Shown here in pieces: positions 1 to 17,911 of a stretch of 22,338 nt of DNA (positions within the stretch are counted from its first letter, which is position 1; every line of letters begins with the position of its first letter). The position numbers and the translations under genes were made by a program. Below the pieces are notes generated by a model. That model saw only the letters and a list, made by a program, of their open reading frames with translations. It was not told the DNA's origin and made no database searches. The stretch is from a virus. Location of the stretch: the UHGV virus genome UHGV-0114988. The stretch is one strand, 5' to 3'.

Positions 1-108
1 CTGCGCTTTGTAGGTGATGGCGTTATCGCGGTAATGATTCAGCCCCAGACTAAGCGCACCACAGGCCACCAGCAGGGCAATGATGACCACGCACAGTACG
101 CGGTTCAT
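1..108 (-). CDS. Rz: Rz-like i-spanin, N-terminal 36 codons (gene continues past window start)
   Basis: Minus-strand translation from ATG at 106-108 gives MNRVLCVVIIALLVACGALSLGLNHYRDNAITYKAQ: an N-terminal TM segment followed by NHYRDNAITYKAQ, which matches the lambda Rz N-terminus as I recall it. Confidence 0.7.
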   Translation of the reverse strand, partial: MNRVLCVVIIALLVACGALSLGLNHYRDNAITYKAQ

Positions 109-109
109 T

Positions 110-208
110 TCACCACCAGCGTATCTGACCGATGAAATAACCGGAGGCCATAATCACAAACACCAGCCAGATAAGAATGAACTTCCAGGTGGATAATTTT
201 TCAGCCAT
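110..208 (-). CDS. Hypothetical 32-aa hydrophobic peptide (MAEKLSTWKFILIWLVFVIMASGYFIGQIRWW)
   Basis: ATG-initiated ORF, single predicted TM helix, GGGAG about 9-13 nt upstream. Its TGA stop lies 1 nt before the Rz ATG, suggesting translational coupling. Below the ORF-track size cutoff. Confidence 0.3.
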   Translation of the reverse strand: MAEKLSTWKFILIWLVFVIMASGYFIGQIRWW

Positions 209-283
209 CACTCGAATCTCCCGAATCAGTTTGCTAAAATCAAACACACTTTCCCCTTTGACTTTTCCAGAGTCAGGAAACAC

Positions 284-318
284 AAAACCCCGCTTGCAGC
301 CAACAAACGGGGTTTTTA
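284..318. terminator. Hairpin AAACCCCG...CGGGGTTT flanked by T-runs on both strands (bidirectional terminator-like)
   Basis: Inverted repeat with about 8-bp stem and 15-nt loop; TTTTT follows on + strand and TTTTGTGTTT on - strand. Sits between the endolysin stop and the small ORF/Rz. Confidence 0.3.
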
Positions 319-406
319 CTTTTATTCACTTAGTTTTTGTCAGTTCGCAGGATTTCGTGTTATCCGTCCGTGTGAGAAAACCGCATTTTTCAGCAAAATA
401 TTCTGC

Positions 407-940
407 TTATCTGTCAATTCCCCAGCACGCCAGCGCACTCTCCTGGTCGCGACGGGATACCTGACCGTAACAGTTGTTTGAGCGAATACGGCAGTCTCTG
501 CCACCGTCCTTAATCCACCAGCGAATCGCTTCGCATGCTCCCCTGCGATCACCTGCATTAATTCGTCTGTAAAACGTCGACGGGAAACACTTACCGGGAC
601 CAATGTTGTACGGACAGAATGACGCGATCCCCGCTTTCTGGGGTTCGGTCAGCGGCACTCTGATGTTTTTCTCCACCCACGCCAGCGCTTTATCACGCTC
701 AATGGCGTTAACCTGGTCGCATTTTTCCTTCGACAACTTCATGCCCGGGACGACAGGTTTGCCATCCACCATGATGGCACCACGGCAGATGGTCCAGATC
801 CCCGCACCATCACGGTATGCCGTGGTGTGGTTACCTTCTTTTTCGTCAAGAAACTGGTCGATGATTTCAGGCGCAGAAGCACCTGCCGCAATCAGCGCCA
901 GAACGGCTACCGATAAACCATAGTGGAGTTTCTGAGTCAC
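407..940 (-). CDS. R: Phage endolysin, T4-lysozyme-like (GH24) with N-terminal signal-anchor-release (SAR) segment
   Basis: 177-aa ORF; hydrophobic N-terminus LSVAVLALIAAGASA, then a catalytic region (EGNHTTAYRDGAGIWTICRG) typical of phage lysozymes. Directly downstream of the holin. GTG start as given by the ORF track. Confidence 0.85.
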   Translation of the reverse strand: MTQKLHYGLSVAVLALIAAGASAPEIIDQFLDEKEGNHTTAYRDGAGIWTICRGAIMVDGKPVVPGMKLSKEKCDQVNAIERDKALAWVEKNIRVPLTEPQKAGIASFCPYNIGPGKCFPSTFYRRINAGDRRGACEAIRWWIKDGGRDCRIRSNNCYGQVSRRDQESALACWGIDR

Positions 941-944
941 CTAA

Positions 945-1160
945 TCACTCTCCCCGGGCAGCCTTGCGACGGTCCTCTTTAATTTTGAAATACAGATTCG
1001 TCAGGTATGTCAGGAACCCCAGACACAGGCTCCCCAAAACCCCGATAGCAGCCCACTGTGACGGAGTAACCTGATCCAACCACTGTAGAAACCAGTAACC
1101 CGCACTGCCCGCAGAAGTACCATAGGCTATGCCCGTTGATATTTTTTCCATCTGATACAT
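945..1160 (-). CDS. S: Class II holin, phage 21 S21-like pinholin (71 aa) with dual-start motif
   Basis: [31 protein letters not shown]...[13 protein letters not shown] closely resembles S21 as recalled. Met1 and Met4 give the holin/antiholin dual-start arrangement. Sits immediately upstream of the endolysin. Confidence 0.85.
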
Positions 1161-1236
1161 ATCCCCGCCCCGACAGACCTGTGCTACCGGAAATAAAAAA
1201 GGCCATCAGTGTTTTACTGATGGCCCTGCCCCGCCG

Positions 1237-1527
1237 TTACAGCATTGTGCCCGGTTCGGGTTGTGTGTCTGTCATATCCGTCACCGGTGACTCCGGCTGA
1301 ATATCACCATTTTCCGTGGTGACATCTTCCGCCTGTGGTTCCGGAAGCAGTTCCGGGGATGGTTCCGGCTGTGCACCAAGCAATTCATCCAGAATGGCAT
1401 CCACTTCTGCATCAAGACGCGCCTCAAGGTTCTGCCGAAGTTGCTGTTTCAGTGCGCTCCGGACTTCTTCAGAGCGCAGGACTTCCTTCACTGCCTCAGC
1501 AGTGACCAGCGATTTTATTTCTGACAT
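1237..1527 (-). CDS. Hypothetical acidic, Pro/Glu-rich protein (96 aa from internal ATG of track ORF 1237..1701)
   Basis: The track ORF begins with an implausible Cys-rich extension; the internal Met (MSEIKSLVTAEAVKEVL...) gives a compact gene between the nanS-p-like gene and the holin. No recognisable domain. Confidence 0.4.
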   Translation of the reverse strand: MSEIKSLVTAEAVKEVLRSEEVRSALKQQLRQNLEARLDAEVDAILDELLGAQPEPSPELLPEPQAEDVTTENGDIQPESPVTDMTDTQPEPGTML

Positions 1528-1564
1528 AGGATTTTCTCGTTGAAAGGGGTTGTCAAGAAAGTGA

Positions 1565-1747
1565 CTACGGAATGAGCGGATCTTCGGGTTTGCTTCCGGC
1601 TGACTGACTGGCGCTGATTTTCTCTGCGGCCCTTTTATCAATCTGCCTGCGCCAGAAATCGCGCACTGCCCTGTACCCACCCGAAAGAAGATACAGCACA
1701 CAGACCGCCGTACAGAAGTACAGCATCACCTGATGAACAAATGTCAT
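1565..1747 (-). CDS. Hypothetical small membrane protein (60 aa)
   Basis: ATG ORF with an N-terminal hydrophobic helix (LYFCTAVCVLYLLSGG) and a charged C-terminus, in the late operon between the esterase gene and the holin. Confidence 0.35.
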   Translation of the reverse strand: MTFVHQVMLYFCTAVCVLYLLSGGYRAVRDFWRRQIDKRAAEKISASQSAGSKPEDPLIP

Positions 1748-1843
1748 AGTTTCTTACCGTTATGGTTGACAATGAGAACTGTTTTCATTTAAAAACCGAT
1801 ATACGAAAGCATCTTTTCTTTACATTCTCCATTGGGATTACCT

Positions 1844-1880
1844 CCGCCAGCTTCCGTTCCTGCCGCTGGCGGCTTTTTTT
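1844..1880 (+). terminator. Hairpin (CCGCCAGC...GCTGGCGG) followed by TTTTTTT on + strand
   Basis: 8-bp GC-rich stem with a large 13-nt loop and a 7-T run; oriented against the minus-strand late genes. Confidence 0.3.
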
Positions 1881-1885
1881 GCCGG

Positions 1886-3877
1886 TTATGATGATGCCCG
1901 GCTTTCGTTAACTTTGACTGTGACCGTATCAAGCAGTACCGGATACGTCGCTTTTGCCCCCGTGATATCTGTCAGCGTCAGCGTATCTGCTGTAAAGCCA
2001 TCATTTGTCCACATCACCAGGTCAAACGCAGACTGCTCTGTATCATCAATCACCGGCACCACTTTTTCGCTGTTATTTCCCGCAAAGCGGAAAACAACTG
2101 TATGCCAGTTATGGTCAAATGCCCCAAATGTGCCCAGTTGCGCATTCGACTCCCCCTTGTGGTACATCAGATTCAGATTTGATGCATCCGTCTGAAGGAA
2201 GAAGGACGCCAGCATGCTGTTTGCTGTCGCGCCTGACGCCCACTGCGACACCGGCCAGTACAGACCAAAGACAAACTGACCGTTAACCAGTTCGACACCC
2301 TCCGGGATCTTAAACCGCACGGCAATTTCACCTCCCTTACTGAGAAGATTTTTTGCCTCCTCCACCGCAACAGTACGGAACATCTTCCAGGAGGTCAGTT
2401 TACCCGGCTGTTTTTCCAGTCGCAGCGCCTTCCTGCCACTGTCATCCGTCACAGTGCCTTTACCACCGGACGCATTCCACTGCTGCTCTGTCCATACACC
2501 ACTGCCACTGTTCGCATCATATCCGGCCACCATTCTTGTTACGGCTTCAGTATGACCGCCTGCAGAAGTACCTGCACCCTGCTGTTGCGTCGGACCCGCA
2601 GAGCCAGACTGTGCATCCCCCGTGGAGGCTGGCGTGGTCGCCAGCGGTGCAGACTGCCCGCTCAGGAACGGCAGCAAACGCCCGGCTCGCACCAGTATCT
2701 CTCCTGCCAGCCGATCTGAAACAATGCCTCTTCGCGCCCAGGAGCTGAAGTGCGTTTTACGATCGGCTGTCGTCCAGTTACCATTACTGCGTGACGCGGC
2801 ACCATAGTATCCCGCCGTGATAATGTCCGGATCTTCTGACGGCTCGTTTGTCGGCACATTCGCACCATGCTCATCCGTCATCAACGGCACAAAGTGAATA
2901 TTCTGCGCCGCCTTGCCTTTATAGCCTCCGTAAACCGCCTCATACTGCACTGCATACTTCGCCTTCCAGTCGTACGTGGTGTCACCGCAAATCCACGGGA
3001 CGCCGGACGTTGTCCCGCCAATACACTGGTCTGCAATATCTGCCAAGTCTGCACGGTATTTATTTACCATGGCAAGAAAAAGTGCATTGTGCTCTGCATG
3101 TCTCCCCGAACTGACATCTTTTTCCCCCTGCATCCAGATCACCGACAACAGCACGTTTTTCGGATTTTTCTTCAGGGCTGCACGCGTTCTGCTGACCAGG
3201 TCACGATACAACGGTTTATCCACCCCCCACAGGGAAGAGCCCGCTGTCGCACCCGACGCCTCATTAAACGCGCCCTCTGCTCCCGCAGTAAATCCCGAAT
3301 CGCCACGTCCACACGGGACAAGAAGGATCCCCGCACGGGCAGGCATAAACGGCAGCAGTTTTTTGGCCACATGCAGGGCATGCCCCACACAGCCATACTG
3401 CCCTTTATTGAGGTCTGCTTTCGGGTGATTCAGATTACTCACGTCCTGCACATCATGCAGACAATGGTCTGCAGGAATAATGTCGTTATATGCACAGGCC
3501 GCACCGCCCGGTGTCACCGTGCTGCGACGCGCCAGTTGCTTAATACGCGGGTCAGGACGATCATACGTATCCGGCAGCGGCAGCCCCTCGCCAAAAGACA
3601 TCGAGTTGGACTGCCCGGCCAGCGCAATGACAAAGTAATATTCCGGTTCGCTGGTGGTGCTGATAACTGTGCCTTCTCCATCCGACGGCTTCACCACCAC
3701 AGGTGTGGTGACATTACCTTCTGCGACAATCGCCTGAATAAGTGCTGCGCCATCATCCGTATACGAAGAAAACGGCCCGCCGTATGGTTGCCATCCTTCA
3801 CGAATTTTTTGAGCAAGCGCATCCGCAAGGTCTGACGGCGATGCCGCCCTGACCACGTCATAGTGTTTAAATGCCAT
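1886..3877 (-). CDS. nanS-p: NanS-p-like prophage sialate 9-O-acetylesterase (SGNH/SASA-type hydrolase), 663 aa
   Basis: GQSN catalytic-serine motif (YFVIALAGQSNSMSFGE) and an N-terminal segment resembling the DUF1737-type region of EHEC prophage NanS-p proteins, from memory. Strong GGGAGG RBS before the ATG at 3877. Occupies the position downstream of Q/tRNA as in Stx-type phages. Confidence 0.75.
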   Translation of the reverse strand: MAFKHYDVVRAASPSDLADALAQKIREGWQPYGGPFSSYTDDGAALIQAIVAEGNVTTPVVVKPSDGEGTVISTTSEPEYYFVIALAGQSNSMSFGEGLPLPDTYDRPDPRIKQLARRSTVTPGGAACAYNDIIPADHCLHDVQDVSNLNHPKADLNKGQYGCVGHALHVAKKLLPFMPARAGILLVPCGRGDSGFTAGAEGAFNEASGATAGSSLWGVDKPLYRDLVSRTRAALKKNPKNVLLSVIWMQGEKDVSSGRHAEHNALFLAMVNKYRADLADIADQCIGGTTSGVPWICGDTTYDWKAKYAVQYEAVYGGYKGKAAQNIHFVPLMTDEHGANVPTNEPSEDPDIITAGYYGAASRSNGNWTTADRKTHFSSWARRGIVSDRLAGEILVRAGRLLPFLSGQSAPLATTPASTGDAQSGSAGPTQQQGAGTSAGGHTEAVTRMVAGYDANSGSGVWTEQQWNASGGKGTVTDDSGRKALRLEKQPGKLTSWKMFRTVAVEEAKNLLSKGGEIAVRFKIPEGVELVNGQFVFGLYWPVSQWASGATANSMLASFFLQTDASNLNLMYHKGESNAQLGTFGAFDHNWHTVVFRFAGNNSEKVVPVIDDTEQSAFDLVMWTNDGFTADTLTLTDITGAKATYPVLLDTVTVKVNESRASS

Positions 3878-4074
3878 GAATCCTCCCGGCCGGGATAATG
3901 TTGTGAGTCAGATAAGGGGCGGGCTGAAGTCCGGAAGTTACAGGACAATGACAGAAGGAAGACTACAGCCCGCAATACGAAAAAGGCCGCGCAGTTGCGC
4001 AGAGTGATTACTGTCGGGTATTATTCGCCAGCTGAAAAATTGATTACTTCACGTTTTGTTGTTTATTCCTTGCT

Positions 4075-4103
4075 GCCCGCGTCTCCCGGCGCGGGCTTTT
4101 TTT
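4075..4103 (+). terminator. Intrinsic-terminator-like hairpin (GCCCGCG-N8-CGCGGGC) plus TTTTTTT on + strand
   Basis: 7-bp GC stem, 8-nt loop and 7-T tract read directly; no U-tract on the minus strand. Confidence 0.4.
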
Positions 4104-4442
4104 GCATGTAAAAAGGCTCCTGCGATGAGGAGCCTGGATATATGCCTAATCTCTGTATACAGCATGATGCCGGGTGCCTCCCGGTGAGTTCAGTATCAGC
4201 ACCTGAACCCGCACCAGATAAGGGATATAACCAACCACCTGTCGCTGATATGCCCCTCCGCACAGGGGGATTCACCATGCCAGTTTCTTTTAACAAATAC
4301 TCAGTCTGACAGGCAACTGTCAACTGACTGAATTGTGAGACATTTAAAATTTTCGGGGCATGACTGATACCCGGCTAACCACCTGATGCTTCCTTTTTTA
4401 GCAACAAACAGGTCCACCAAAGTGAGACAGAAAAAATAAGTG

Positions 4443-4519
4443 TGGCGCGTTGTACTGGATTCGAACCAGTGACCGATTGCTTAGAAGGCAATTGCTCTGT
4501 CCGGCTGAGCTAACAACGC
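4443..4519 (-). tRNA. tRNA-Arg (anticodon UCU), 77 nt
   Basis: Minus-strand sequence GCGTTGTTAGCTCAGCCGGACAGAGCAATTGCCTTCTAAGCAATCGGTCACTGGTTCGAATCCAGTACAACGCGCCA folds as a cloverleaf: 7-bp acceptor stem, anticodon stem ATTGC/GCAAT with loop CTTCTAA, T-arm ACTGG-TTCGAAT-CCAGT, and an encoded CCA. Confidence 0.85.
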
Positions 4520-4630
4520 ATGAAGTTTTCTGTAATCATCCTCGTTTGGTAACTGCCACTGGCTGACACTGAACCAGTGCGATGTCATGTTTTTCTTTCC
4601 TGTTTTATTAATTTTTCCCCAGCAGAAGAC

Positions 4631-4660
4631 AAGAAAAAAGGTTCCGGTGTTATCGGAACC
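4631..4660 (-). terminator. Minus-strand hairpin (GGTTCCG-N7-CGGAACC) followed by TTTTTTCTT; candidate tR'-like terminator or pause structure
   Basis: Perfect 7-bp stem with a U-tract on the minus strand, 30-60 nt downstream of the Q stop codon. Confidence 0.4.
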
Positions 4661-4679
4661 TTTCAGCAGTAAGCATACA

Positions 4680-4685
4680 ATTATA
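4680..4685 (-). promoter_or_regulatory. Consensus -10 hexamer TATAAT on minus strand just downstream of Q (candidate late promoter pR' -10 / Q-utilisation region)
   Basis: TATAAT read on the minus strand 5-10 nt after the Q stop. No convincing -35 was found, so this is tentative. Confidence 0.25.
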
Positions 4686-4689
4686 GACG

Positions 4690-5112
4690 TTATAACCATA
4701 ACATATTTTTTTGTGCGCACACAACCCTTTCAGGTAGTACAACTTCAGGATCCATATCCAACCTTACTCCCTGCAGAGTCAGAGCTCCTTCCAGAAATGC
4801 TTCAGACGCCTTCAGGGATGTCCGTACGCTAAAATGACTACGGTCTATCGCCTCAGCAATTGCACGCGTTGAGAGGCCGCCTATAAAACGTAACCCCAAG
4901 ATCAGCAAATCATCGTACGGGCAAACCATACTCATATGCGCGATGCAGGTATCAATCACCGCTCCATCCTCGTCAGAGCAACCGGGTTTGCCACTGTCGG
5001 TTACGTCCCGGGAAGTAACCGACATTGAGGGCCAGTCAACCATTGAACAGTATTCCTCGCTCGCCGCCCATCGCCCCCACCGCTCCAGAACAAGTTGCAT
5101 ATCTCTACGCAT
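4690..5112 (-). CDS. Q: Late-gene antiterminator Q (phage 21/933W-type Q family)
   Basis: N-terminus MRRDMQLVLERWGRWAA resembles 21/933W-type Q proteins as recalled. Position is immediately upstream of the tRNA/late lysis region. Confidence 0.65.
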   Translation of the reverse strand: MRRDMQLVLERWGRWAASEEYCSMVDWPSMSVTSRDVTDSGKPGCSDEDGAVIDTCIAHMSMVCPYDDLLILGLRFIGGLSTRAIAEAIDRSHFSVRTSLKASEAFLEGALTLQGVRLDMDPEVVLPERVVCAQKNMLWL

Positions 5113-5165
5113 AACGCTGGCCTCTACGTTTTGCTACGAAAAAATTTTCTGAGAACTACGTCTGT

Positions 5166-5185
5166 TTATCCGTGGGTGTGGATAA
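5166..5185. promoter_or_regulatory. Inverted pair of DnaA-box-like 9-mers (TTATCCGTG and TGTGGATAA, the latter the reverse complement of consensus TTATCCACA)
   Basis: Read directly: TTTATCCGTGGGTGTGGATAACG. One perfect and one 7/9 match to the DnaA box consensus. Confidence 0.4.
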
Positions 5186-5204
5186 CGCAGTTCCGATCCG
5201 CATA

Positions 5205-5224
5205 TTGCATGTATCAACATGCAA
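5205..5224. promoter_or_regulatory. Perfect palindrome TTGCATG-N6-CATGCAA (candidate dimeric regulator site)
   Basis: 7-bp inverted arms with a 6-bp spacer, between the DnaA-box pair and the iterons. Confidence 0.3.
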
Positions 5225-5242
5225 AAAGTTGCTAATTCGGAG

Positions 5243-5433
5243 TGGAACCACCTGCCCCCACCTGGAACCACCTTTTCCTAACCTTTCCCTCAATCGACTT
5301 ATATATATATATGGGGTTTCTAGTAGAAAGGCGGTTCCAGTGGTTCCAGTAGTTCCGCCCCGCTTGCCACAAGGTCTGCAAGGTGGAACCACCTTCTCTT
5401 TTAGGTGGTTCCGCATGGTTCCAGCGGTTCCCA
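5243..5433. repeat. Iteron array with central (AT)7 tract; candidate replication origin
   Basis: The 11-mer TGGAACCACCT occurs directly at 5243, 5263 and 5384, and inverted (AGGTGGTTCC) at 5403. Three tandem 9-mers GGTTCCAGT lie at 5333-5356, with further GGTTCC units at 5417-5433. The tract TATATATATATAT lies at about 5298-5312. The array sits immediately 3' of the primase-helicase gene and overlaps its last codons. Confidence 0.55.
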
Positions 5434-7587
5434 AACCTTGCATTTTTTCCCCCCAATTCGCCTTTGGGCACGCTTATACCCGCAATTTTGCAAAACATTA
5501 CTAATTCGCATTTCTTCGCGTTTTCCGATGCGGTCAGGATTTAGCCCAATCGCATCACGCAAAACATCACTTGCGCGTAAAAATTCGCAATTTCGCGGAA
5601 GTTCATTAGTCATCAGGTCGGGCGTGTCGAGCCATTTCTCTACCGTTTCAAGCCAAGCATCCTTGATGGTGTACTGTTCATGGACACTCGCTGCCAGTTG
5701 TTCAGCCTCACGGAACTGGATACCCCCCAGACGCTGAAACACCTCACGAGCCTCAGCCCAAAGTAAAAGGAGATCTCTTTTTATCGCTTTCACGTCGACT
5801 TTCGACACTTCCACGGGGAGCCAGCGACGGTTACCAGTCTTGTCCGCAAGGAATTCGTCCTCATTGGTGGTACCAACGAACAGCAGGCGACGAGGAAACT
5901 GGGTGGCGAACTCCCGGTATTTCGGGATCCAGTTTTCGTGAGTACGCGTCACAAACGCTTTGATTGACTCCAGCTCTTTGGTATTAAGTCCGCGCAGTTC
6001 ACCAATCTCTGCCACCAGCCGACCACGCATTTTTCGAGCGAGATCATCGTCTTTTTCGGCAAAAGAGATTTCAGTAAAAAACGCAGGATCAGGGCTCAGT
6101 GCCTCCACTCCGGAAGACTTACCGCAGCCCTGCGGACCAACGAGGATCGGCACCATATCCGCTTTGATGCCTGGCTCCAGTACTCGCCCCGCCAACGCGG
6201 TCCACATGTACATAGACACCGCACGGGTATAAGGCGTGTCGGCGGTACCGAAGTGCGTATGGTAGAAACATTCGATGCGCGGCACGCCATCCCACTCCAG
6301 TCCGTTCAGCCAGGTGATCGCTGAATCGAATGGTTGTTCATCGGCTGCAAGTAACACCACATCGCGAATAAGTTCACGGCCAACAGGTTTAAATCCCCGC
6401 TTTTCCATCGTGATGCGCAGGCGCGCATAATCCGCATCGGTGAATGCCCGCCATTGTCCGGATCCTGCCGGGGCAAACATGATTTCGTCGCGGAACTGGT
6501 CAAAGCGAATATCGATGTCCACAAAATCAGGACGTACTACTGCTTTGGCTGCGTTGCTGATGGTTGCCTCGATACGCCCCCATTTATCACGCTCGAAAGC
6601 AGGCAGCGGTAAAGGTTCCGCCACTTCGATGCTGGTCAGATCTTCGAAATCGTCGTTGCGGATCCCGATGGCATTCAGGAAATCTCCGTCATCACGATGC
6701 GCGCAACTGGCATGCAGGCATTTAAAATGCCCCTGCTCAAAGCCTGCGGTTCCCGCAGGAAAATAAACTGTGCTTGTTGGATCGCCTCCGCTACTGTGGC
6801 CGTCTTCAAACGGACAGCGGATATATCGTTCACCGTTTGCACCATCCAGCAGCGTCCAGCCATTGGCATCAAGATATTCAGCTGTATCATCCGTCGCGCC
6901 GGGCGTGAATGCTGAACGGTCGCGCATCTTCGTGTTGCCCGCTTCGGTGGTTACCGACACAGGGAGTTGTTCAGCCAGGCGCTGCCACAGCGTTTCAAGC
7001 TGCTCACCTGTAATAGCCGGAGGTTCATCCGGCAAACCACCGTCCCATTCAATACGCGCGCCGCTGCTGTGCGTACCACAGGCAACGAACTGCTGCCCGT
7101 TCGCCAGCAACTCGATAATGCCCATATCCCCCGCCAGGCGATGGATACGCTTACGGAAATCACCATCAACGGCCAGCAGATACAGACACTTATTACTGTT
7201 TGCTCGCCAGCGTCGCGGCGGCGACTCACCCAGAAGTTGCACAAGTGTTTTGCGAATATCTGCCTGAATGTCTTCATCTTCGCTATCGCAGTCCAGCGCC
7301 AGCCAGCCATGGCCTGTACGCACGCAGATGCCATAATCCGGTTCATTCGACCAGCGGGCAAAATCATGCTCAGTAACAACATGCCCGGTCCATTGAGCAA
7401 TACCGGTGACCTGGCGGTCCCGGTTATAGCGACTCGGCGTCTTACCCAACGCTTTCAATTTACTATCAGGGGATATGGTCGCACTGGGGTTACATACAAC
7501 TGGGAGAAGATGAGCAGTCCGCCCCAATACCAGGTCGAAATGAAACCACTCATCAGGCGTAGCTCCCCATGTTTTGCTATCGGACAT
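5401..7587 (-). CDS. Replication primase-helicase: N-terminal PrimPol/AEP-like domain fused to a VirE / P4-alpha-type Walker-A NTPase domain, 728 aa
   Basis: Acidic DxD-type motif (WLALDCDSEDED) in the N-terminal half. Walker A ILVGPQGCGKSSG and surrounding region resemble phage/plasmid primase P4-family C-terminal (VirE-like) domains. AAGGTG RBS; ATG at 7587 directly follows the cro-like stop. Confidence 0.8.
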   Translation of the reverse strand: MSDSKTWGATPDEWFHFDLVLGRTAHLLPVVCNPSATISPDSKLKALGKTPSRYNRDRQVTGIAQWTGHVVTEHDFARWSNEPDYGICVRTGHGWLALDCDSEDEDIQADIRKTLVQLLGESPPRRWRANSNKCLYLLAVDGDFRKRIHRLAGDMGIIELLANGQQFVACGTHSSGARIEWDGGLPDEPPAITGEQLETLWQRLAEQLPVSVTTEAGNTKMRDRSAFTPGATDDTAEYLDANGWTLLDGANGERYIRCPFEDGHSSGGDPTSTVYFPAGTAGFEQGHFKCLHASCAHRDDGDFLNAIGIRNDDFEDLTSIEVAEPLPLPAFERDKWGRIEATISNAAKAVVRPDFVDIDIRFDQFRDEIMFAPAGSGQWRAFTDADYARLRITMEKRGFKPVGRELIRDVVLLAADEQPFDSAITWLNGLEWDGVPRIECFYHTHFGTADTPYTRAVSMYMWTALAGRVLEPGIKADMVPILVGPQGCGKSSGVEALSPDPAFFTEISFAEKDDDLARKMRGRLVAEIGELRGLNTKELESIKAFVTRTHENWIPKYREFATQFPRRLLFVGTTNEDEFLADKTGNRRWLPVEVSKVDVKAIKRDLLLLWAEAREVFQRLGGIQFREAEQLAASVHEQYTIKDAWLETVEKWLDTPDLMTNELPRNCEFLRASDVLRDAIGLNPDRIGKREEMRISNVLQNCGYKRAQRRIGGKKCKVWEPLEPCGTT

Positions 7588-7590
7588 GGG

Positions 7591-7791
7591 TTACACCTTT
7601 TGTCTAGCTGTCACTTCCTGAAAAAGTTTTTCTATCGCACGTACTGTAGAAAAGCGAGGGTCAGAATGAACCCCGGTAAGAAGCCGACTAATAGAAGACT
7701 GCTTCACGCCTGCAATTTCGGCAATTTGGTTTTGGGTATACCCTGAATCAATCAAGCTTTTGACCATCTCTTGTGGTGTTAGTCCGGACAT
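7591..7791 (-). CDS. Cro-like small HTH DNA-binding protein (66 aa)
   Basis: HTH-like segment YTQNQIAEIAGVKQSSISRLLTG. Divergent from the CI-like repressor, first gene of the minus-strand early operon, GGAGA RBS. Confidence 0.6.
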   Translation of the reverse strand: MSGLTPQEMVKSLIDSGYTQNQIAEIAGVKQSSISRLLTGVHSDPRFSTVRAIEKLFQEVTARQKV

Positions 7792-7932
7792 ATTTAAGTC
7801 TCCACTTTCGTCTATAGCGCAAATTTATACGAAAACGGATTACCCAGCAATACAGCAATTCTATGTCATCCTAGATTAAAATATCCGATAACGCATAATC
7901 ACCGTCCCTGTATACAACATGGATGAATCCAA
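7792..7932. promoter_or_regulatory. Divergent promoter/operator region between cro-like and cI-like genes
   Basis: 141-bp intergenic region containing a minus-strand TATAAAT (+ strand 7823-7829), the palindrome TGTATACA (about 7909-7916), and the motif GATAACGCATAATCA (7887-7901) that recurs twice downstream of cI. Confidence 0.5.
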
Positions 7933-8607
7933 ATGATTGATACTACCGATATCCTTTCTCAAAACATCAAGTACCTGATGGACAAAGCCAAGATAAGCTC
8001 GATAACTGAGCTGGCACGTCGGTTACAGCTGAACCAACCAACGCTACACAGGCTGGTATCAGGAGAGGTGAAAGATCCGAAATACGCAACGTTAAAGCAG
8101 ATCGCCGACTACTTCCACGTGTCACCAATAGACTTGGCAGAAAGGAGCCTTCAAGAAATGGAGAAAGAGGACGCGACAGGTATAAAAACGTATATTTCTC
8201 TTAGGTTTAATAAAGTACCTGTTTTGGGAAACACTCAGCTAGGCGTTGGAGGACTTTGGAGCGACACCCAATATTCAGTAGGTAGCAGTGATGGTTTCAT
8301 ATACTGGCCGACAAAGGATGAAGATGCATACGCCCTGAAATGTGTTGGTGATTCAATGATGCCTAGAATCAAAGAGGGGGAGTTCGTAATCGTCGAACCC
8401 AACCACGACTACACTCCTGGTGATGAAGTACTTGTGGTTACCCGGGACGGTGAGGTCATGGTTAAAACCTTCTTGTTCGAACGCGATGGCCTGTTCCATC
8501 TAATGTCTGTAAATGAAGATCATCCACCAGTCAGAGTACCACGCGAAAACATTGAAAAAATCCATTACGTGGCGGGGATCGCCAAATCCGCGCTACGTAT
8601 GTACTAA
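7933..8607 (+). CDS. cI: CI-like prophage repressor: N-terminal HTH plus C-terminal LexA/S24-type autopeptidase domain
   Basis: N-terminal HTH (SITELARRLQLNQPTLHRLVSG); C-terminal GDSMMP (Ser nucleophile) and VMVKTF (Lys) consistent with an S24 Ser-Lys dyad; 224 aa. Confidence 0.85.
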   Translation: MIDTTDILSQNIKYLMDKAKISSITELARRLQLNQPTLHRLVSGEVKDPKYATLKQIADYFHVSPIDLAERSLQEMEKEDATGIKTYISLRFNKVPVLGNTQLGVGGLWSDTQYSVGSSDGFIYWPTKDEDAYALKCVGDSMMPRIKEGEFVIVEPNHDYTPGDEVLVVTRDGEVMVKTFLFERDGLFHLMSVNEDHPPVRVPRENIEKIHYVAGIAKSALRMY

Positions 8608-8640
8608 CCTTTACAGTCTGATAACTTACTTCTGATCAAA

Positions 8641-8670
8641 CCGCTCTCCACAAGGGCGGTTTTCTTATTT
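8641..8670 (+). terminator. Intrinsic terminator after cI (CCGCTC-loop-GGGCGG plus TTTTCTTATTT)
   Basis: 6-bp stem (including one G-U pair) followed by a T-rich run, 34 nt after the cI stop. Confidence 0.45.
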
Positions 8671-8691
8671 GCAAAATAATTCATTTTCGCA

Positions 8692-8721
8692 TTGACACAA
8701 AATCCCATAACGCATATAAAT
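8692..8721 (+). promoter_or_regulatory. Near-consensus sigma70 promoter (TTGACA-17 nt-TATAAA(T)); candidate early-left pL-type promoter, overlapped by operator-like repeats
   Basis: TTGACA at 8692-8697, 17-nt spacer, TATAAA at 8715-8720. Motifs CATAACGCATATAAA (8706-8720) and GATATCGCATAATCA (8724-8738) overlap the -10 and start region; the latter matches the cro/cI intergenic site at 14 of 15 positions. Confidence 0.5.
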
Positions 8722-8756
8722 ACGATATCGCATAATCAATGCATTTTTTAATACTG

Positions 8757-8768
8757 GCTCTTTAACAA
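8757..8768 (+). promoter_or_regulatory. boxA-like antitermination element GCTCTTTAACAA
   Basis: 12-nt identity to the rrn-type boxA core (UGCUCUUUAACAA) as recalled, about 35 nt downstream of the predicted start of the pL-like promoter. Confidence 0.4.
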
Positions 8769-8913
8769 ACTAAACCGCGTGACAGGTAAGCCGCAGTACT
8801 CCTGGCAAAATGAAATGGCACCCGATGGGATCGAGGTAAGCGCCGAGTCCGTATGCGTACGGTAAGCGTAGAGGACAACACCGCGACAAACTGATAAGTC
8901 ACGCAAGTTGAAA

Positions 8914-8944
8914 CGCCCCGACGATGGGGCGCTTAGTTCCTTTT
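8914..8944. terminator. Hairpin CGCCCC-GACGAT-GGGGCG with U-rich flanks (terminator-like, possibly bidirectional)
   Basis: 6-bp GC stem; CTTAGTTCCTTTT follows on + strand and TTTCAACTT on - strand. Lies about 80 nt 3' of the minus-strand gene 9026..9550 and about 190 nt downstream of the pL-like start. Confidence 0.35.
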
Positions 8945-9025
8945 GGGGTGGGGTGAAGATCAGTCCATTGAGTCAATCCGAAGTTCAGCATCTACCACTA
9001 CACCACCACCAAAGAGAACTGCTAA

Positions 9026-9550
9026 TCATCTGGCAGGTTGTAACGGTGCAGGAATTTTGCCACTGACTTCTATATTTCGGGGAAATTTATATTCAGCGGA
9101 GCATTTATGACACTTGAGAATTTTATAAGCGGCATTAGAAGTATGGTATTGAAGTATAGACTTCATACCCGACTCATAGCATGTAGTACAAAGATAATGA
9201 GGCTTGAACTCAGGATCGTCAGTAGGCTTCAGTACATAGACCACCGTATTGGTAATCGGGTGGTACATTTCATAGTTCATTTTCTCACTATCCCAATCCT
9301 GTTTCTTTTCCAGAAGGGATTCGAGTTCAACAATGCGCTGTTTAGCTTCGTTCAAAAGCTCCGTTAGTGCGAATTGTCCAGTACGCGCATCAATTAGTTT
9401 ATCAAGTAGATCGATAGTTTTACTTTTAACATTGTAATCCACCTGCAACGCATTAACTTCTTTTGCTAAATCAACAGCACCTTTCAAAGCACCACCAGCA
9501 CTAGTGGCCGCCTCAGTTATACGCCGTACAAGTCCTTTTTCTTCAGACAT
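9026..9550 (-). CDS. Hypothetical coiled-coil protein with C-terminal Cys4 zinc ribbon (174 aa); moron-like gene opposed to the early-left operon
   Basis: ATG ORF; N-terminal 100 aa predicted helical/coiled-coil; CxxC...CxxC (CTTCYE...CHKCSAEY) at the C-terminus. No family recognised. Confidence 0.55.
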   Translation of the reverse strand: MSEEKGLVRRITEAATSAGGALKGAVDLAKEVNALQVDYNVKSKTIDLLDKLIDARTGQFALTELLNEAKQRIVELESLLEKKQDWDSEKMNYEMYHPITNTVVYVLKPTDDPEFKPHYLCTTCYESGMKSILQYHTSNAAYKILKCHKCSAEYKFPRNIEVSGKIPAPLQPAR

Positions 9551-9570
9551 CTTAATTCTCTCTAAAACTA

Positions 9571-9620
9571 TAGGGGTAAAGAGATATTAGCCGAATTCTC
9601 GCTGTAGGGGTACAGAGAGA
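9571..9620. repeat. Two direct repeats TAGGGGTA(A/C)AGAGA spaced about 34 bp, upstream of the minus-strand gene 9026..9550
   Basis: Read directly at 9571-9584 and 9605-9620; plausible promoter/operator elements. Confidence 0.3.
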
Positions 9621-9678
9621 GCCATCTCGTCTGACGTGGTTAAAACTGACATCCATGTAATTGCTGTGTGTAGCCTTT

Positions 9679-9707
9679 GCCCGCCTCAAGTGACGGGCTT
9701 TTTTATG
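9679..9707 (+). terminator. Intrinsic terminator (GCCCG-N10-CGGGC plus TTTTTTAT) on + strand
   Basis: 5-bp GC stem, 10-nt loop, 6-T tract, about 55 nt upstream of the small ORF at 9764. Confidence 0.4.
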
Positions 9708-9763
9708 TCTGAAAGCGCACTCGCAACAGCGCGCTCCCCGATATGAAAAAAGGAATACAACCG

Positions 9764-9913
9764 ATGAAACCTGAACACATCCATCGACTGACGGGGCGCG
9801 ATGTTCTCCGTTATCGCCGTAAAAACTTCGATTTGATGACCGGTCTGGCCGTTGCCACTGCGCTCGGTCTGATCATCACTTTCATTCTCCTTGTAGCGAG
9901 GACCACAGTATGA
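9764..9913 (+). CDS. Hypothetical small tail-anchored membrane protein (49 aa; alternative start at 9743 gives 56 aa)
   Basis: [49 protein letters not shown]: basic N-terminus, C-terminal TM helix. AAGGA RBS 8 nt upstream. Stop TGA overlaps the ATG of the next gene (ATGA). Confidence 0.4.
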   Translation: MKPEHIHRLTGRDVLRYRRKNFDLMTGLAVATALGLIITFILLVARTTV

Positions 9914-10812
9914 GTTTAGAAACCAGTCTCGAACTTAATAATCAACTTCTGGCACAACATAATGCGCTGCTTGAACGTCTTATCCGCACAATGGCATCAG
10001 GTATTGTTATGCATCCTGACACGATTTCACGAGTGCAGGAATGTCGGGATACAGCAACTGAAGCTGAAAACATGTCAGCGGCAATGACACTGGATGATCT
10101 GGAGTTCAGCGACGTTATCGCACTGGCTGGTTTCTACCCGGTAGCCACCCCTATCACAGAAGACATGCTGCAACGTGCTGTTGCCTACCGTGATGCTGAA
10201 GGCGATAAACGAGTAGTTCAGATTGATGCTCTCGACAGCGCATTGCAGGGCGTCAAACGAGCCAGGGCGCTGCTTAAACCTGCTCTCCTGGACCTGTCCC
10301 GTAACATTCTTAAGTTCTGGGACGACCTGCCAACCATCGGCGAGCGACGTGCTTTTGCCGAGCAGCTACTTGATGCACCTGCAGATGGGCGTGATGAAGT
10401 TAAACCGAAAAAGGCTAGTGACAAAGATGGAGAACGCACGGGGCCGTTTTACGTCAAAAATATATCCGGCACAGCAGCCAGTGAACTCCACACCTTACGC
10501 AAGTTGAACGAGATGCTTAAAAAAGGCCATATCGAGATCAACCGTGTTGAGTACCTTCAGCTGCAGGAAGAATTTGCACGCAGAGACGCAGCAAATTCCA
10601 GCCAGAATAATGACGCCAAAGATGACCATACAATTGATTTCGCGGCACTACGCAAACAAGCTGAAGGGTTGATCCTCCAGTTAGCAAAAGGGGGTTACCG
10701 GGCAGAAGCTATTGCAATTCTGGAAAAACAGGGAGCCAGGAAACTTGGTGAAGTAATGGATGAAAATCTCGCTGAAGTAATCACCCTAGCTGAAAAAGCA
10801 CTGGAGGGTTAA
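9910..10812 (+). CDS. Hypothetical acidic helical protein (300 aa), first large gene of the rightward replication/recombination operon
   Basis: Long ATG ORF in operon context, translationally coupled on both sides. No motif recognised. Confidence 0.55.
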
Positions 10813-10814
10813 TC

Positions 10815-12116
10815 ATGCCAGACGTTCACGCACAACTTTCTCCATCATCAGCGCATCGATGGATGCGCTGCCCAGGAAGTCTGGCGCTGGAGGCCACACA
10901 ACCGGATAAAGAAACAACTTTTGCAATCGAGGGCACTGCAGCGCACGCGCTTGCTGAAAAAGTTCTACGAAACAGGCAAAGCCACCCGGAACACTACGCC
11001 GGATGCAATGTTTCTATGTTTCTCGGCTCATACCCCCTTCGCGAAAATCCTGATGATACATCTGGCCCACAGGTGGATGATGAAATGGTCGAAGCCGTTG
11101 GGCGGTATGTTGATACGGTCTGGACTCTTGCACAGAATAATGAACTATTGGTTGAACAACGTGTTGATTTCTCACATATAACGGGGGTGGAAGAATCTTT
11201 CGGAACTGCCGACGGCATAATCATCGCTGGTAACGAATTACAAATCCACGACCTGAAATATGGCAAAGGCGTCCGCATTGATGCAGAACAAAATGAGCAA
11301 CTACAACTGTATGCTCTGGGTGCGCTCGAACAATTCAGCATGCTGTATGACTTTGAGACTGTAAGATTATTTATTCACCAGCCAAGGCTCAACCACGTTT
11401 CAGAATGGTCATTAACCGTACAGGAACTTCAGTCTTTCGGTGAACGGGCACAGGAGGCCGCAACCAGTGCGATCCTTGTTCTCAATATTGCTGAATGCGA
11501 AGGCATTGAGACACTACCGCTGGAAAACTTCATACCTGGAGAAAAACAGTGCCGCTTCTGTAAAGCAAAAGCTATTTGCACTGCCCAGAAAATGCAGCAT
11601 TTACAAACAGCGGCCAGCGATTTTGAAGATCTGACAAAGCCTGTCAGCGAAATAATCACCAATGCCAGCGCACGTGTACCTCTGTTAACCATTGAGCAGC
11701 TTGCGGAGATCTATAGCCAGGCCGACTTTATTGAATCCTGGCTAAAGGCAGTACGAGACCGGGTTCACAATGAACTCAATGCCGGACATCCGGTACCGGG
11801 GTTTAAACTGGTAACAGGAAAACAAGGTAACCGGGCCTGGAGTGATGAAGAGGCAGCTCGCGCACTTCTGAAGGACCAGTTCAGGTACAAAACTGAAGAA
11901 GTATTCGACTTTAAACTTATTAGCCCCACAAAAGCCGAAAAACTTATCAAAAAGGCCAGTCCGCGCCGTTGGTCAAAAGTCGAGGCACTGATAACACGAG
12001 CTGATGGTAAACCCACCGTCGTTCCCGAGTCAGACCCACGCCCCGCACTCAATATTAACCCTATAAATGATTTCGACGACGTATCCGACGATACGCTAAC
12101 CGCAGACCTCATCTGA
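10815..12116 (+). CDS. PD-(D/E)XK nuclease, Cas4/RecB-like phage exonuclease with C-terminal Cys cluster (family often annotated DUF2800)
   Basis: N-terminal [15 protein letters not shown]-x-K-type motif IHDLKYGKG, Cys cluster [10 protein letters not shown] suggesting an Fe-S or Zn site. 433 aa. Family assignment from memory. Confidence 0.7.
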
Positions 12117-12131
12117 TTTAAGGAAATCCCC

Positions 12132-12680
12132 ATGAAACTGAAGCTGAACAATGTTCGTCTGGCTTTCCCGTCTCTGTTTGAAGCTAAAACTGTAAACGGC
12201 GAAGGCGATCCACGTTTCTCCGCAGTATTTTTAATGTCACCCAAACACCCACAACTGGAAGAAATCCGTAAAGCTATGAAGCAGGTAGCGAAGGAAAAAT
12301 GGGGAGAGAAGTGGGAGTCCATTTATAACCAGCTGGAGAAAAAACTCAATCTGTGCCTGCATGATGGTGATGAAAAAGCAGAGTATGAAGGCTTCCCCGG
12401 TAATTTCTTCCTGAATGCTGCTAACAAAGCGCGCCCTGCTGTTCTTGATCGCGATCGTTCGCCACTGATTCAGGCTGATGGACGTCCCTATGCAGGGTGC
12501 TATGTAAACGCCGTTATCGATATCTGGGCACAGGACAATAATTTCGGTAAACGCATTAATGCCTCACTCGGCGGAGTCCAGTTCCTGCGAGACGGCGATG
12601 CATTCGCTGGCGGCGGAGTGGCAAGCGCTGACGATTTCGACGATATCAGCGAAGGTGCTGATGCTGAAGCACTGATTTAA
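12132..12680 (+). CDS. Phage ssDNA-binding-like protein (DUF2815-type), 182 aa, acidic C-terminal tail
   Basis: N-terminus MKLKLNNVRLAFPSLFEAK resembles DUF2815 proteins that accompany family-A polymerases in phage replication modules (recalled). Acidic tail DDFDDISEGADAEALI is SSB-like. Confidence 0.6.
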   Translation: MKLKLNNVRLAFPSLFEAKTVNGEGDPRFSAVFLMSPKHPQLEEIRKAMKQVAKEKWGEKWESIYNQLEKKLNLCLHDGDEKAEYEGFPGNFFLNAANKARPAVLDRDRSPLIQADGRPYAGCYVNAVIDIWAQDNNFGKRINASLGGVQFLRDGDAFAGGGVASADDFDDISEGADAEALI

Positions 12681-12694
12681 TCCTGCTTCACAGA

Positions 12695-12720
12695 CGCCCG
12701 GTTAAACGCCGGGTGTTTTT
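12695..12720 (+). terminator. Intrinsic terminator after the SSB-like gene (CCCGG-loop-CCGGG plus TTTTT)
   Basis: Stem of 5-7 bp followed by a T5 run, 15 nt after the stop codon. Confidence 0.4.
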
Positions 12721-13063
12721 GCAAAGGGGAATATGCCCAGAGCTACCTGTATTGTTCTGGTTAGCACCCAGTCGCCCTGCTACCCCGATATTGACTCATC
12801 GCCCCCTTCCGGTTTATGCTCACCGAATCTCCCAAATGGAGATCGGGATTTGCAACCCGGAATTGTTAGGGGCGACACCAGACGCGCCAGCGTCTTTTTT
12901 ATTGTCGCAAGCTTTGCCACGTTCGCATTATGGCGGGCTGGCGGGGGCGCTTCGGCGCGCCGGTTTCCTCTAACGCCGGTATTGCAAACCTCGTCAGTTC
13001 GCCACCCATATGAGATTTGCAACTCAGTGGTGGCGGTGAATTTCACCGTTAGAGGTAACTGTG

Positions 13064-13828
13064 ATGGCAACTCAGCTCATCCCCGTTTTCAACGGCGCTA
13101 TCGCCAACGAAACCACCCTGCTCTGCAATGCTCGCGATCTGCACGCATTCCTTGGGGTAGGGAAAGTGTTTGCAGCGTGGATTACATCACGAATTGCAGA
13201 CTATGAATTCGTTGAAAATCAGGATTATATCGTAACGTTTTCCAAAACTGGAAAGCGTAAAAATGTTCTTTGTAAGGACTACCACCTCACTCTCGATACA
13301 GCCAAAGAACTGGCGATGGTGGAGCGCAACGAAAAAGGCCGCCAGATCCGCCGATACTTCATCGAGTGCGAAAAGAAACTTCGCCAGCAATCCTCCACGA
13401 TACTGGCGCCACACAGGGAGTGTCTGCCGAAGATGGTTTACCATCACCGGAGCAAATACAATCCGTACAGGGCTTATGCATGGGACGGAGAGAAAAGCGT
13501 TTACGTCGGGTGCTATCCGACTGTGGATGAGGCTGTCGCTGCTCAGGAACGCTTCTACCGGAACGGCAGCACGAAACGCATTCAGAAGGCGCAGACAGCA
13601 GTCAGTGACGCAGAGAAGGAAATGTTCATCAACAATCTCCGCGCCGTCTGCCATAACTTCCGGCGCATCAATGAAATCTGGCGGGCGCAGTTAATGCCTG
13701 CTCTCGAAAAAATGGATTCGAAACTGGTTTACCAGCTGCATGACCGCTTCAGCGACAGCATGTGCATTCTGCCGACCATAGAAGACCGCATCGGCAGATA
13801 TATTCCGCCGTCACAGCTTCCACACTAA
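13064..13828 (+). CDS. AntA-family antirepressor-like protein with uncharacterised C-terminal domain (254 aa from ATG; track start is GTG at 13061)
   Basis: N-terminal region (ARDLHAFLGVGKVFAAWITSRIADYEFVENQDY ... YHLTLDTAKELAMVERNEKGRQIRRYFIECEKKL) resembles the AntA/AntB N-terminal domain as recalled. AGAGG RBS. Confidence 0.6.
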   Translation: MATQLIPVFNGAIANETTLLCNARDLHAFLGVGKVFAAWITSRIADYEFVENQDYIVTFSKTGKRKNVLCKDYHLTLDTAKELAMVERNEKGRQIRRYFIECEKKLRQQSSTILAPHRECLPKMVYHHRSKYNPYRAYAWDGEKSVYVGCYPTVDEAVAAQERFYRNGSTKRIQKAQTAVSDAEKEMFINNLRAVCHNFRRINEIWRAQLMPALEKMDSKLVYQLHDRFSDSMCILPTIEDRIGRYIPPSQLPH

Positions 13829-13839
13829 TTCCACAATTC

Positions 13840-13866
13840 GCCCCTGCTCAGTCAGGGGCTTTTTAT
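13840..13866 (+). terminator. Intrinsic terminator after the antA-like gene (GCCCCTG-N6-CAGGGGC plus TTTTTA)
   Basis: 7-bp stem and T-run read directly, 12 nt after the stop. Confidence 0.45.
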
Positions 13867-13943
13867 CACCGTTTAATTTACGGAGGACTTCGTTTTGTCT
13901 GAAAACACTGATTTAAAAAAAGCAAAGTATCAGACCTGTAATA

Positions 13944-14543: not shown

Positions 14544-14569
14544 GTAGCTAATTCTTCGGAGTAAATACA

Positions 14570-16633: not shown

Positions 16634-16638
16634 CTCCT

Positions 16639-17546: not shown

Positions 17547-17564
17547 CAATTTCGTTACGGTACC

Positions 17565-17879: not shown

Positions 17880-17911
17880 AGTAACTACCTCATAAACTCG
17901 ATTCTCAAAGT

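Follow-up and report, generated by a model that had tools for sequence, protein, structure and literature searches.

In Shiga toxin 2a (Stx2a) phages of the 933W type, the late region carries, in order, Q, a methylase gene, three tRNA genes, stx2AB, the small RNA (sRNA) STnc100/EcOnc27, nanS-p (yjhS), S, R, and Rz. The 933W-type Stx2a phage Stx2_95 (LC567838) has the series tRNA-Met, tRNA-Arg, tRNA-Arg, stx2A, stx2B, STnc100, and yjhS/nanS-p, and the Stx2b prophage of Escherichia coli STEC1590 (NZ_CP129345) lies at yfhL, which has been reported as an Stx prophage site (PMC10675304). Two reports describe nanS-p as induced together with stx under phage-inducing conditions and document well its presence in non-Stx prophages (PMC10462455; PMC8065619). 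We analyzed the virus genome UHGV-0114988, a stretch of 22,338 nucleotides (nt) that we call the window, and within it the late-gene locus that runs from the antiterminator gene Q to the esterase gene nanS-p. The whole window is an E. coli prophage adjoining yfhL, and its best relative is the STEC1590 Stx2b prophage, with 83% of the window covered. We conclude, with a probability of roughly 85%, that the locus forms the promoter-proximal end of a late operon, that its carrier is a temperate E. coli prophage, and that this carrier is a sibling of Stx2b-converting phages, mosaic and free of the toxin. All of the components and their arrangement (Q, tRNA, STnc100/PasD-type sRNA, nanS-p, and lysis genes, whether stx is present or absent) are already documented, and the specific mosaic is one further instance of a known arrangement.

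All genes of the locus are on the minus strand, and coordinates accordingly decrease in the reading direction. The gene order is Q (5112-4690), tRNA-Arg(UCU) (4519-4443), a 565-bp interval (4442-3878), nanS-p (3877-1886), and lysis genes; the full anatomy is Q, a terminator, a methyltransferase remnant, tRNA-Arg(UCU), a 104-bp filler, STnc100 and its terminator, a leader, nanS-p, two small open reading frames (ORFs), holin, and lysozyme. The features on which the comparison depends are the following.

4690-5112, minus strand: Q late-gene antiterminator, 140 amino acids (aa) (PF06530, E 7.5e-31, 118/118 profile positions; PHROG 79, anti-termination protein Q-like)
4681-4686, minus strand: TATAAT, candidate -10 hexamer of the late promoter PR', a perfect hexamer read from the sequence, 4 nt past the Q stop codon
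4630-4664, minus strand: tR'-like intrinsic terminator directly after Q, 11-bp stem and U-run (dG -16.2 kcal/mol, z -4.57)
4509-4603, minus strand: remnant (internal fragment) of a phage DNA methyltransferase gene, fused to the tRNA gene (PHROG 6952, methyltransferase, E 1e-8)
4443-4519, minus strand: tRNA-Arg(UCU), intact, the crossover interval (ARAGORN anticodon tct; Rfam tRNA, 70.1 bits)
4339-4442, no strand assigned: variable cargo slot, 104 bp in the window versus 1,385 bp (terminator hairpin, stx2bA, and stx2bB) in STEC1590
4104-4309, minus strand: STnc100 sRNA (RF02076), multi-helix core at 4282-4160 and its own terminator at 4135-4114
4075-4103, plus strand: intrinsic terminator, 9-bp stem (4075-4096) and T7 (dG -19.2 kcal/mol, z -2.95), back to back with the sRNA terminator
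3878-4074, minus strand: conserved nanS-p leader with a weak terminator (4002-3987), a long hairpin (3973-3919), and the Shine-Dalgarno sequence GGGAGG (3887-3882)
1886-3877, minus strand: NanS-p sialate O-acetylesterase, 663 aa, with DUF1737 (residues 3-53), a NanS-like SGNH domain (77-395), and a jelly-roll DUF6645 domain (451-657)

The order Q, terminator, tRNA, nanS-p, and holin/endolysin matches that of annotated Stx2a and Stx2b phages, which agrees with a preliminary description of this DNA that had recognized a Q-tRNA-cargo-lysis order of the Stx-phage type. No stxA or stxB gene lies between the Q/tRNA genes and the lysis cassette in the window.

Sequence identity to two kinds of prophage changes over within the tRNA gene. 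The window is 99.2% identical to STEC1590 from 8700 to 4434, and beyond this point identity drops to about 80%; this comparison gave three mismatches between 4800 and 4443, with dense mismatches from 4442 onward. The window is 99.9% identical to the non-Stx prophage of E. coli SW070917 over 4523-3800 and 95.6% identical over 4523-947, and here the mismatches were dense above 4524 and absent from 4523 to 4300. The 77-bp tRNA gene is identical at 77/77 positions to the third tRNA gene of Stx2 phages (Stx2_95, STEC1590, and 89-3156) and to that of the non-Stx relatives. Since the mismatch pattern switches sharply and the tRNA gene is identical in all lineages, we place the crossover in this gene. 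The early region through the tRNA gene appears to be of the Stx2b-phage type, and everything after the tRNA gene appears to be of the non-Stx lambdoid type. Because the two lineages share an identical tRNA gene and the switch lies inside it, homologous recombination there, rather than deletion in place, is suggested as the reason for the absence of stx. The sequences are explained most economically if an Stx2b-type phage and a non-Stx lambdoid prophage traded late arms, with the tRNA gene as the site of homologous recombination.

The ARAGORN call, the Rfam score, and the 77/77 match to the Stx2-phage gene confirm the earlier statement that tRNA-Arg(UCU) is intact, and ARAGORN found this single tRNA in the whole window. 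Degenerate tRNA genes of the ileZ/argN type, which had been proposed as something to seek in 4060-4700, were not recovered: an Rfam scan of 3700-5300 gave one tRNA at E ≤1, and ARAGORN gave one. The gap between Q and the tRNA gene is occupied by the methyltransferase fragment, not by tRNA remnants. In Stx2_95 and SW070917 the methylase gene is intact, and the fragment is 78 to 79% identical to an internal part of it; the NCBI annotation pipeline PGAP labels the same fragment a pseudogene in relatives. Compared with the 933W-type phages, the window lineage has lost most of the methylase gene and the first two tRNA genes, and the compact form with the methylase remnant is common to the window and the Stx2b prophages. 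The AGA and AGG codons make up 22% of the arginine codons in the esterase gene, 27% in Q, and 33% in the lysozyme gene, which fits a role of the tRNA in codon supply. The hairpin that follows the tRNA gene is degenerate in the window (dG -5.5, z -0.15), and because a terminator normally stands at this place, the tRNA and the sRNA may be cotranscribed and then processed apart.

Homology to STEC1590 reaches the 3' end of the tRNA gene and resumes at 4338, at TCACAATTCAGTCAGTTGACAG, so only 4442-4339 is the stx slot. The preliminary description had assigned the position of stxAB to the whole of 3878-4442, and this assignment has to be narrowed to the 104 bp that match the place of stx in the relatives. 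The other ~460 bp of the interval consist of the sRNA and the nanS-p leader, both of which are also found downstream of stx2B in Stx2 phages; in a three-way alignment, the window matches Stx2_95 from about 4342 into the esterase gene, with the sRNA and the leader aligning throughout. The interval had been described as about 560 bp of noncoding DNA, which holds insofar as no protein gene is supported (ORFs of ≤86 aa) but overlooks the ~460 bp of STnc100 and nanS-p leader. Nor does it contain only a hairpin and AT-rich sequence: its G+C content is 48.7%, against 49.9% for the window, and it includes a full-length STnc100. The strong plus-strand hairpin with T7 that had been noted is present at 4075-4096.

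We found no stx remnant anywhere in the window: tblastn with the Stx2b A and B subunits gave only E >0.2, and when the stx2a and stx2b cassettes were compared whole by blastn-short, nothing beyond chance 13-mers appeared. The alignment of the interval to Stx phages that the preliminary description had suggested thus recovered Stx-phage synteny and no stx remnant. The proposal that the locus is a remnant of an Stx-phage late region was abandoned, since the window holds no trace of stx and the sequence after the tRNA gene comes from a non-Stx lineage.

We collected 120 related loci from IMG/VR by means of a 28-nt motif of STnc100. The distance from the end of the tRNA gene to this motif counts, on top of the slot itself, about 59 bp of 5' flank of the sRNA; it fell into the following classes.

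104-107 bp, 30 loci: terminator hairpin, no ORF
163 bp, 2 loci (the window and SW070917): degenerate hairpin and about 57 extra bp
~726 bp, 19 loci: 108-aa ORF
~800-858 bp, 15 loci: TerB-like 143-aa ORF in 10, a different ORF in 5
~1,435 bp, 5 loci: stx2AB

Among the 104 sRNA loci with enough upstream sequence, stxB was present upstream in 8, and tRNA-Arg(tct) was the nearest upstream tRNA in 68; the esterase gene was present within 1.2 kb downstream in 84/96 loci. These counts and distance classes indicate that the Stx architecture without stx is the usual state of the module. The exact tRNA-to-sRNA joint of the window was found in 9 of 5,426 complete E. coli genomes. The module of Q, methylase remnant, and tRNA was found in 10 of the same 5,426, with stx2 directly after the tRNA gene in 9 of these 10 (8 with stx2b and 1 with an annotated a/c/d subtype). 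Together with the 99.2% identity to STEC1590 over 8700-4434, the 9/10 count bears out the earlier suggestion that the window is an stx-negative relative of Stx phages. SI-NP020 is the only stx-negative genome among the 10. In SI-NP020 (4700-5530), a window-like sRNA copy breaks off where its core ends, and a full copy, of the 80%-identity type, comes next; this tandem partial duplication looks like a recombination scar within the sRNA.

The relatives differ from the window on one side of the tRNA gene or on both. STEC1590 shares the integrase, the BPP-1/APSE-like replication genes, the repressor, VapE, Q, the methylase remnant, and tRNA-Arg, and its late-gene order is the same as in the window, but identity to the window is only ~80 to 92% in the sRNA, the leader, the esterase gene, and the lysis genes. 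The Q gene of the window has ~99% DNA identity to Q of the Stx2b prophages. An stx2AB pair between the tRNA and the sRNA was also found in STEC1590, SMBL, and STEC435 (stx2b) and in 89-3156 (stx2). The Stx2a phages share with the window tRNA-Arg(UCU) at 77/77 positions, the sRNA, the leader, nanS-p, and the position of the holin in the gene order, whereas Stx2_95 differs in having another Q, an intact methylase gene, two more tRNA genes (annotated Met/Ile and Arg), stx2AB, and ~81% DNA identity downstream. The non-Stx carriers of nanS-p are the E. coli SW070917 and 04-00955 prophages, phage PhiR12_1, and several EDL933 prophages. The non-Stx relatives have an sRNA, a leader, and an esterase type as in the window (94 to 96%), and the prophages of 04-00955 (100%) and SW070917 (99.9%) also share its toxin-free tRNA-to-sRNA joint. 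The SW070917 and 04-00955 prophages have a different antiterminator gene (annotated DUF1133), an intact methylase gene, three tRNA genes, and unrelated early regions, and PhiR12_1 has a different antiterminator gene, no tRNA gene, and an unrelated early region.

The first late protein gene after the interval encodes a NanS-p. Pfam gave DUF1737 (E 1.8e-11, positions 1-53 of 53), SASA (E 1.2e-9), and DUF6645 (E 3.8e-32), and the protein belongs to PHROG 143 (E 1e-294). Among solved structures, E. coli NanS (3PT5, E 1.2e-111) matches residues 77-395, and the C-terminal domain of a phage NanS-p (6YP6, E 6.7e-47) matches residues 451-657. The 663-aa SGNH-type sialate O-acetylesterase of the preliminary description is therefore upheld by homology, and so is its strong ribosome-binding site, a GGGAGG four bases 5' of the esterase ATG. 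In the 3PT5 alignment, Ser90 in AGQSN (the GQSN motif) and His376 in THFSS line up with NanS residues that we take to be the catalytic Ser19/His301 dyad of the NanS structure paper. Because the active-site residues are conserved, the NanS-p is probably an active esterase. It shares the three-domain architecture, the GQSN serine, and the C-terminal histidine with known NanS-p proteins (933W Z1466/L0105; phi24B vb_24B_21, or gp84; 6YP6) and with NanS 3PT5, but its C-terminal domain has diverged from that of phi24B, with several alignment gaps at the E value given above, and its linkers differ. A 322-aa plus-strand ORF antisense to the esterase gene (2867-3835) had no Pfam match and was taken as a by-product of the esterase frame.

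The view of the esterase as Q-dependent cargo has to be qualified. The phi24B homologue gp84 decorates the capsid, where its hexamers sit on the facets through the DUF1737 N-terminal domain and the protein is proteolytically processed (bioRxiv 10.64898/2026.04.10.717836). The window protein has the full DUF1737, so "cargo" may be half the story. NanS-p could instead be a structural late protein that decorates the capsid and is not lysogenic-conversion cargo, a role with which esterase activity is compatible and which the place of the gene at the head of the late operon would reflect. The retention of the gene in 84/96 related loci fits this role; however, recombinant EDL933 and O104:H4 NanS-p proteins were active and let lysogens grow on Neu5,9Ac2 (PMC8065619). 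We give this capsid role somewhat less than even odds.

Several observations weigh against our account of the locus as a toxin-free sibling of Stx2b phages with a Q-controlled late operon, or against parts of it. No Q relative of ≥60% identity was present among 50,697 phage records, the nearest being APSE Q at 38%, so no well-studied close relative is at hand, and PDB relatives sought to locate the binding site were absent at E <0.01. The TATAAT at 4686-4681 might be the -10 element of PR', with a poor, unrecognizable -35 and no call by the consensus scan. No Q-binding or pause element was identified near the late promoter, where a characterized Q relative to define the site is lacking. The same consensus scan gave no sigma-70 promoter on the minus strand for the sRNA, the tRNA, or nanS-p, which counts against our account for the first two. 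The capsid genes lie outside the window, so that NanS-p is at most a putative fit to a phi24B-type T=9 capsid, and this limits the capsid role as well. Finally, the sequences would fit either direction of recombination: an Stx2b phage may have lost stx, or an ancestor resembling the window may have gained an arm that carried it.

APSE, the source of the nearest Q, is a Hamiltonella toxin phage.

The second of these directions is a history in its own right, in which a toxin-free, window-like phage was ancestral and the Stx2b phages gained an stx2b-bearing late arm by the same crossover at the tRNA gene. The mismatch pattern is symmetric in direction, the toxin-free tRNA-sRNA-esterase arrangement is by far the commoner among related loci, and there is a second stx-negative sibling, SI-NP020. 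Set against this, the Q module occurs in nine stx-positive versus two stx-negative genomes, and the post-tRNA arm of the window is nearly identical to arms that accompany other antiterminator genes, which suggests that the window is a recent recombinant. We consider the reverse history unlikely, at about one chance in a few, and retain the exchange of the late arm of an Stx2b-type phage as the better account.

The leader ahead of nanS-p (3878-4103, minus strand) and the plus-strand terminator gave another candidate. The leader is 91 to 92% identical in ~12 distinct loci, in which the first 300 bp of the esterase ORF are only 66 to 69% identical, and the hairpin at 3973-3919 is kept mostly through G-C to G-U changes. 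The plus-strand terminator at 4075-4103 is conserved in Stx2_95 and PhiR12_1, and we know of no plus-strand gene that ends there. The conserved leader could serve as a cis-regulatory leader or as a recombination linker, or it could hold an antisense RNA gene. One could propose that the 226-bp leader (4103-3878) is an undescribed regulatory RNA module gating the esterase and, separately, that tRNA-Arg is a crossover swapping the Stx2b toxin arm with non-Stx prophages; we regard this pair of claims as rather improbable. Such a module may take the form of a cis-acting leader structure or of a plus-strand antisense RNA running from near the esterase start to 4104. A second plus-strand terminator with T7 was seen at 1860-1872 (region 1860-1880), just past the esterase stop codon, so that the esterase gene is bracketed by terminators in the antisense direction. 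An Rfam match to full-length Esr41 that ends there (1806-1880) is far below threshold (20.5 bits versus 102, E 0.34).

A deletion in place would have an Stx2b prophage losing stx2AB, with 4442-3878 as the scar. The occurrence of stx2 at exactly this place in 9/10 genomes with the Q/tRNA module and the 99% identity of the left flank to Stx2b prophages are in favor of such a deletion. However, neither tblastn nor blastn-short found an stx fragment, and the right flank is only ~80 to 92% identical to the Stx2b prophage's own post-stx sequence, with the esterase gene at ~80%. That flank is instead 99.9% identical to non-Stx prophages with another antiterminator (annotated DUF1133) and three tRNAs, and these unrelated prophages have the identical toxin-free joint. 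A deletion in place is thus disfavored and, in our judgment, very improbable.

The interval holds a sRNA gene of known family. The segment 4309-4104 matches Rfam RF02076 over model positions 1-206 of 206 (E 3e-41). The score of 174.6 bits compares with a gathering score of 47, and the terminator of the sRNA at 4135-4114 is strong (dG -18.3, z -5.72). STnc100 is also named EcOnc27 and sRNA103 and is related to PasD (PMC12711010, PMC5331693, bioRxiv 10.64898/2026.05.13.724894), of which PasD1 and PasD2 are sRNAs of enteropathogenic E. coli. The RNA overlaps the Hfq-binding sRNA EcOnc27/sRNA103 immediately 3' of stx2B (PMC12711010), and EDL933 has 11 transcribed STnc100 copies, one of them verified by Northern blotting (PMC5331693). 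By analogy to these homologues (EcOnc27 and the EDL933 copies), the window STnc100 is probably an expressed, Hfq-bound RNA. It shares with the STnc100/EcOnc27 family the full-length model match, the closing stem, three hairpins, and terminator, and the place upstream of a sialate esterase gene, and it differs in two ways: the variable hairpin (4250-4205) has a form of its own, and the closing stem includes a G-U wobble, a feature of 6/47 variants.

RNAalifold analysis of 47 distinct cores gave a closing stem and three hairpins with 20 predicted pairs. Compensatory changes occurred at 2 pairs (AU23/GC20; AU39/GC4/UG3/UA1), both in the one helix free to vary in these 47 cores; the other helices are invariant across the set, one of them being fixed by the 28-nt search motif. 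An intrinsic terminator was found by scan at most 140 nt after the core in 58/63 distinct variants and by eye in a 59th, and the terminator sequence is often swapped. The conserved core with swapped 3' tails raised the idea that the core is a cis element of the nanS-p mRNA, which we rejected as the main interpretation given that 58/63 variants have such a terminator after the core.

That the interval codes for small proteins and not for RNA, through the 86-aa minus-strand ORF 4323-4063 or the 55-aa plus-strand ORF 4142-4309, can scarcely be held: both ORFs match PHROG families of unassigned function (35554, E 1e-21; 24488, E 2e-13) and some EDL933 STnc100 copies carry ribosome footprints (coverage values up to 3.2; PMC5331693), but the two PHROGs sit on opposite strands of the same conserved DNA, neither ORF has a Pfam match, core lengths of 112 to 133 nt in relatives differ by non-multiples of 3, a closed ORF across the core is absent in 35/89 distinct relatives, and the compensatory pair changes and 174.6-bit covariance-model match fit an RNA. 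Pfam likewise gave no match to any ORF of the interval. From the frame-breaking lengths and the 35/89 relatives without a closed ORF, PHROG 35554 (4063-4323, minus strand) and PHROG 24488 (4142-4309, plus strand) look like spurious gene calls.

Between Q and nanS-p, the minus strand carries three terminators and no consensus sigma-70 promoter, which agrees with our account. The terminators are one after Q at 4664-4636 (z -4.57, with 0/200 shuffles equally stable), one at 4135-4114 (z -5.72), and a weak one at 4002-3987 (z -1.3). The way in which they may operate can be modeled on lambdoid and Stx-phage biology and on the reports of nanS-p/stx coinduction. In the lysogen, transcripts from the late promoter beside Q would halt at the first terminator (4664-4636). 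Upon induction, Q would make RNA polymerase terminator resistant, so that it reads past the Q-proximal terminator, the sRNA terminator (4135-4114), and the weak terminator at 4002-3987, and this read-through would express the tRNA, nanS-p, the lysis genes, and the virion genes. The tRNA would supply decoding of AGA and AGG. The sRNA would be a separate, terminator-ended, Hfq-binding RNA, with mRNAs of the host or of the prophage as its most likely targets in trans; its homologues are expressed in uninduced lysogens. NanS-p would strip sialic acids of their 9-O-acetyl groups and might also be carried on the capsid via DUF1737. A conserved TTGACA at 4332-4327 was considered as a promoter -35 element and rejected, as it has no acceptable -10 and the sequence downstream is not conserved.

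The genes after nanS-p were identified by Pfam.

1565-1747, minus strand: DUF1378
1237-1527, minus strand: DUF826
945-1160, minus strand: P21-type holin S
407-940, minus strand: lysozyme

The relatives L002 and L004 have the same DUF1378-DUF826-holin-lysozyme order, whereas in STEC1590 the holin and lysozyme genes are present and DUF1378 and DUF826 genes are not annotated. A strong minus-strand terminator (1227-1199, 12-bp stem and T-run) was seen right after the DUF826 ORF, ~40 bp 5' of the holin start. A preprint by Zhu, Shabalina, and Storz places the PasA/PasC sRNAs at the position equivalent to 1227-1199. Rfam contains no model for a PasA/PasC-type sRNA, and between the esterase and holin genes of the window only this terminator and the subthreshold Esr41 match were seen.

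The early region (5401-22045) is not lambda-like. It includes a family-A DNA polymerase that is 97.7% identical to that of phage vB_EcoM-606R2, 67% to that of Bordetella phage BPP-1, and 65% to that of APSE-7, as well as genes for a DUF2800 PD-(D/E)XK nuclease, an Enc34-type single-stranded DNA-binding protein, a VapE primase-like protein, a SNF2 helicase, and an S24/HTH repressor. Rfam isrK (50.9 bits) and C4 antisense RNA (70.6 bits) matches lie in tandem at 12827-13009 (plus strand), directly 5' of an AntA/AntB-type antirepressor ORF (13061-13828), and this set is a P1/P7-style antirepressor module controlled by antisense RNA.

As a discovery, the locus carries little weight, since the layout with or without stx is already on record and for each part a curated model or a solved structure exists. 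It does show cleanly, in a natural case, that the toxin can be absent where the Q/tRNA module typical of Stx2b phages at yfhL is present, a point of relevance to typing schemes that take Q alleles or insertion sites as proxies for stx. A conserved sRNA, which gene callers sometimes make into spurious ORF families, lies in the "empty" gaps after stx or its slot, and toxin cassettes could plausibly be exchanged with the phage tRNA-Arg gene as a homology arm.

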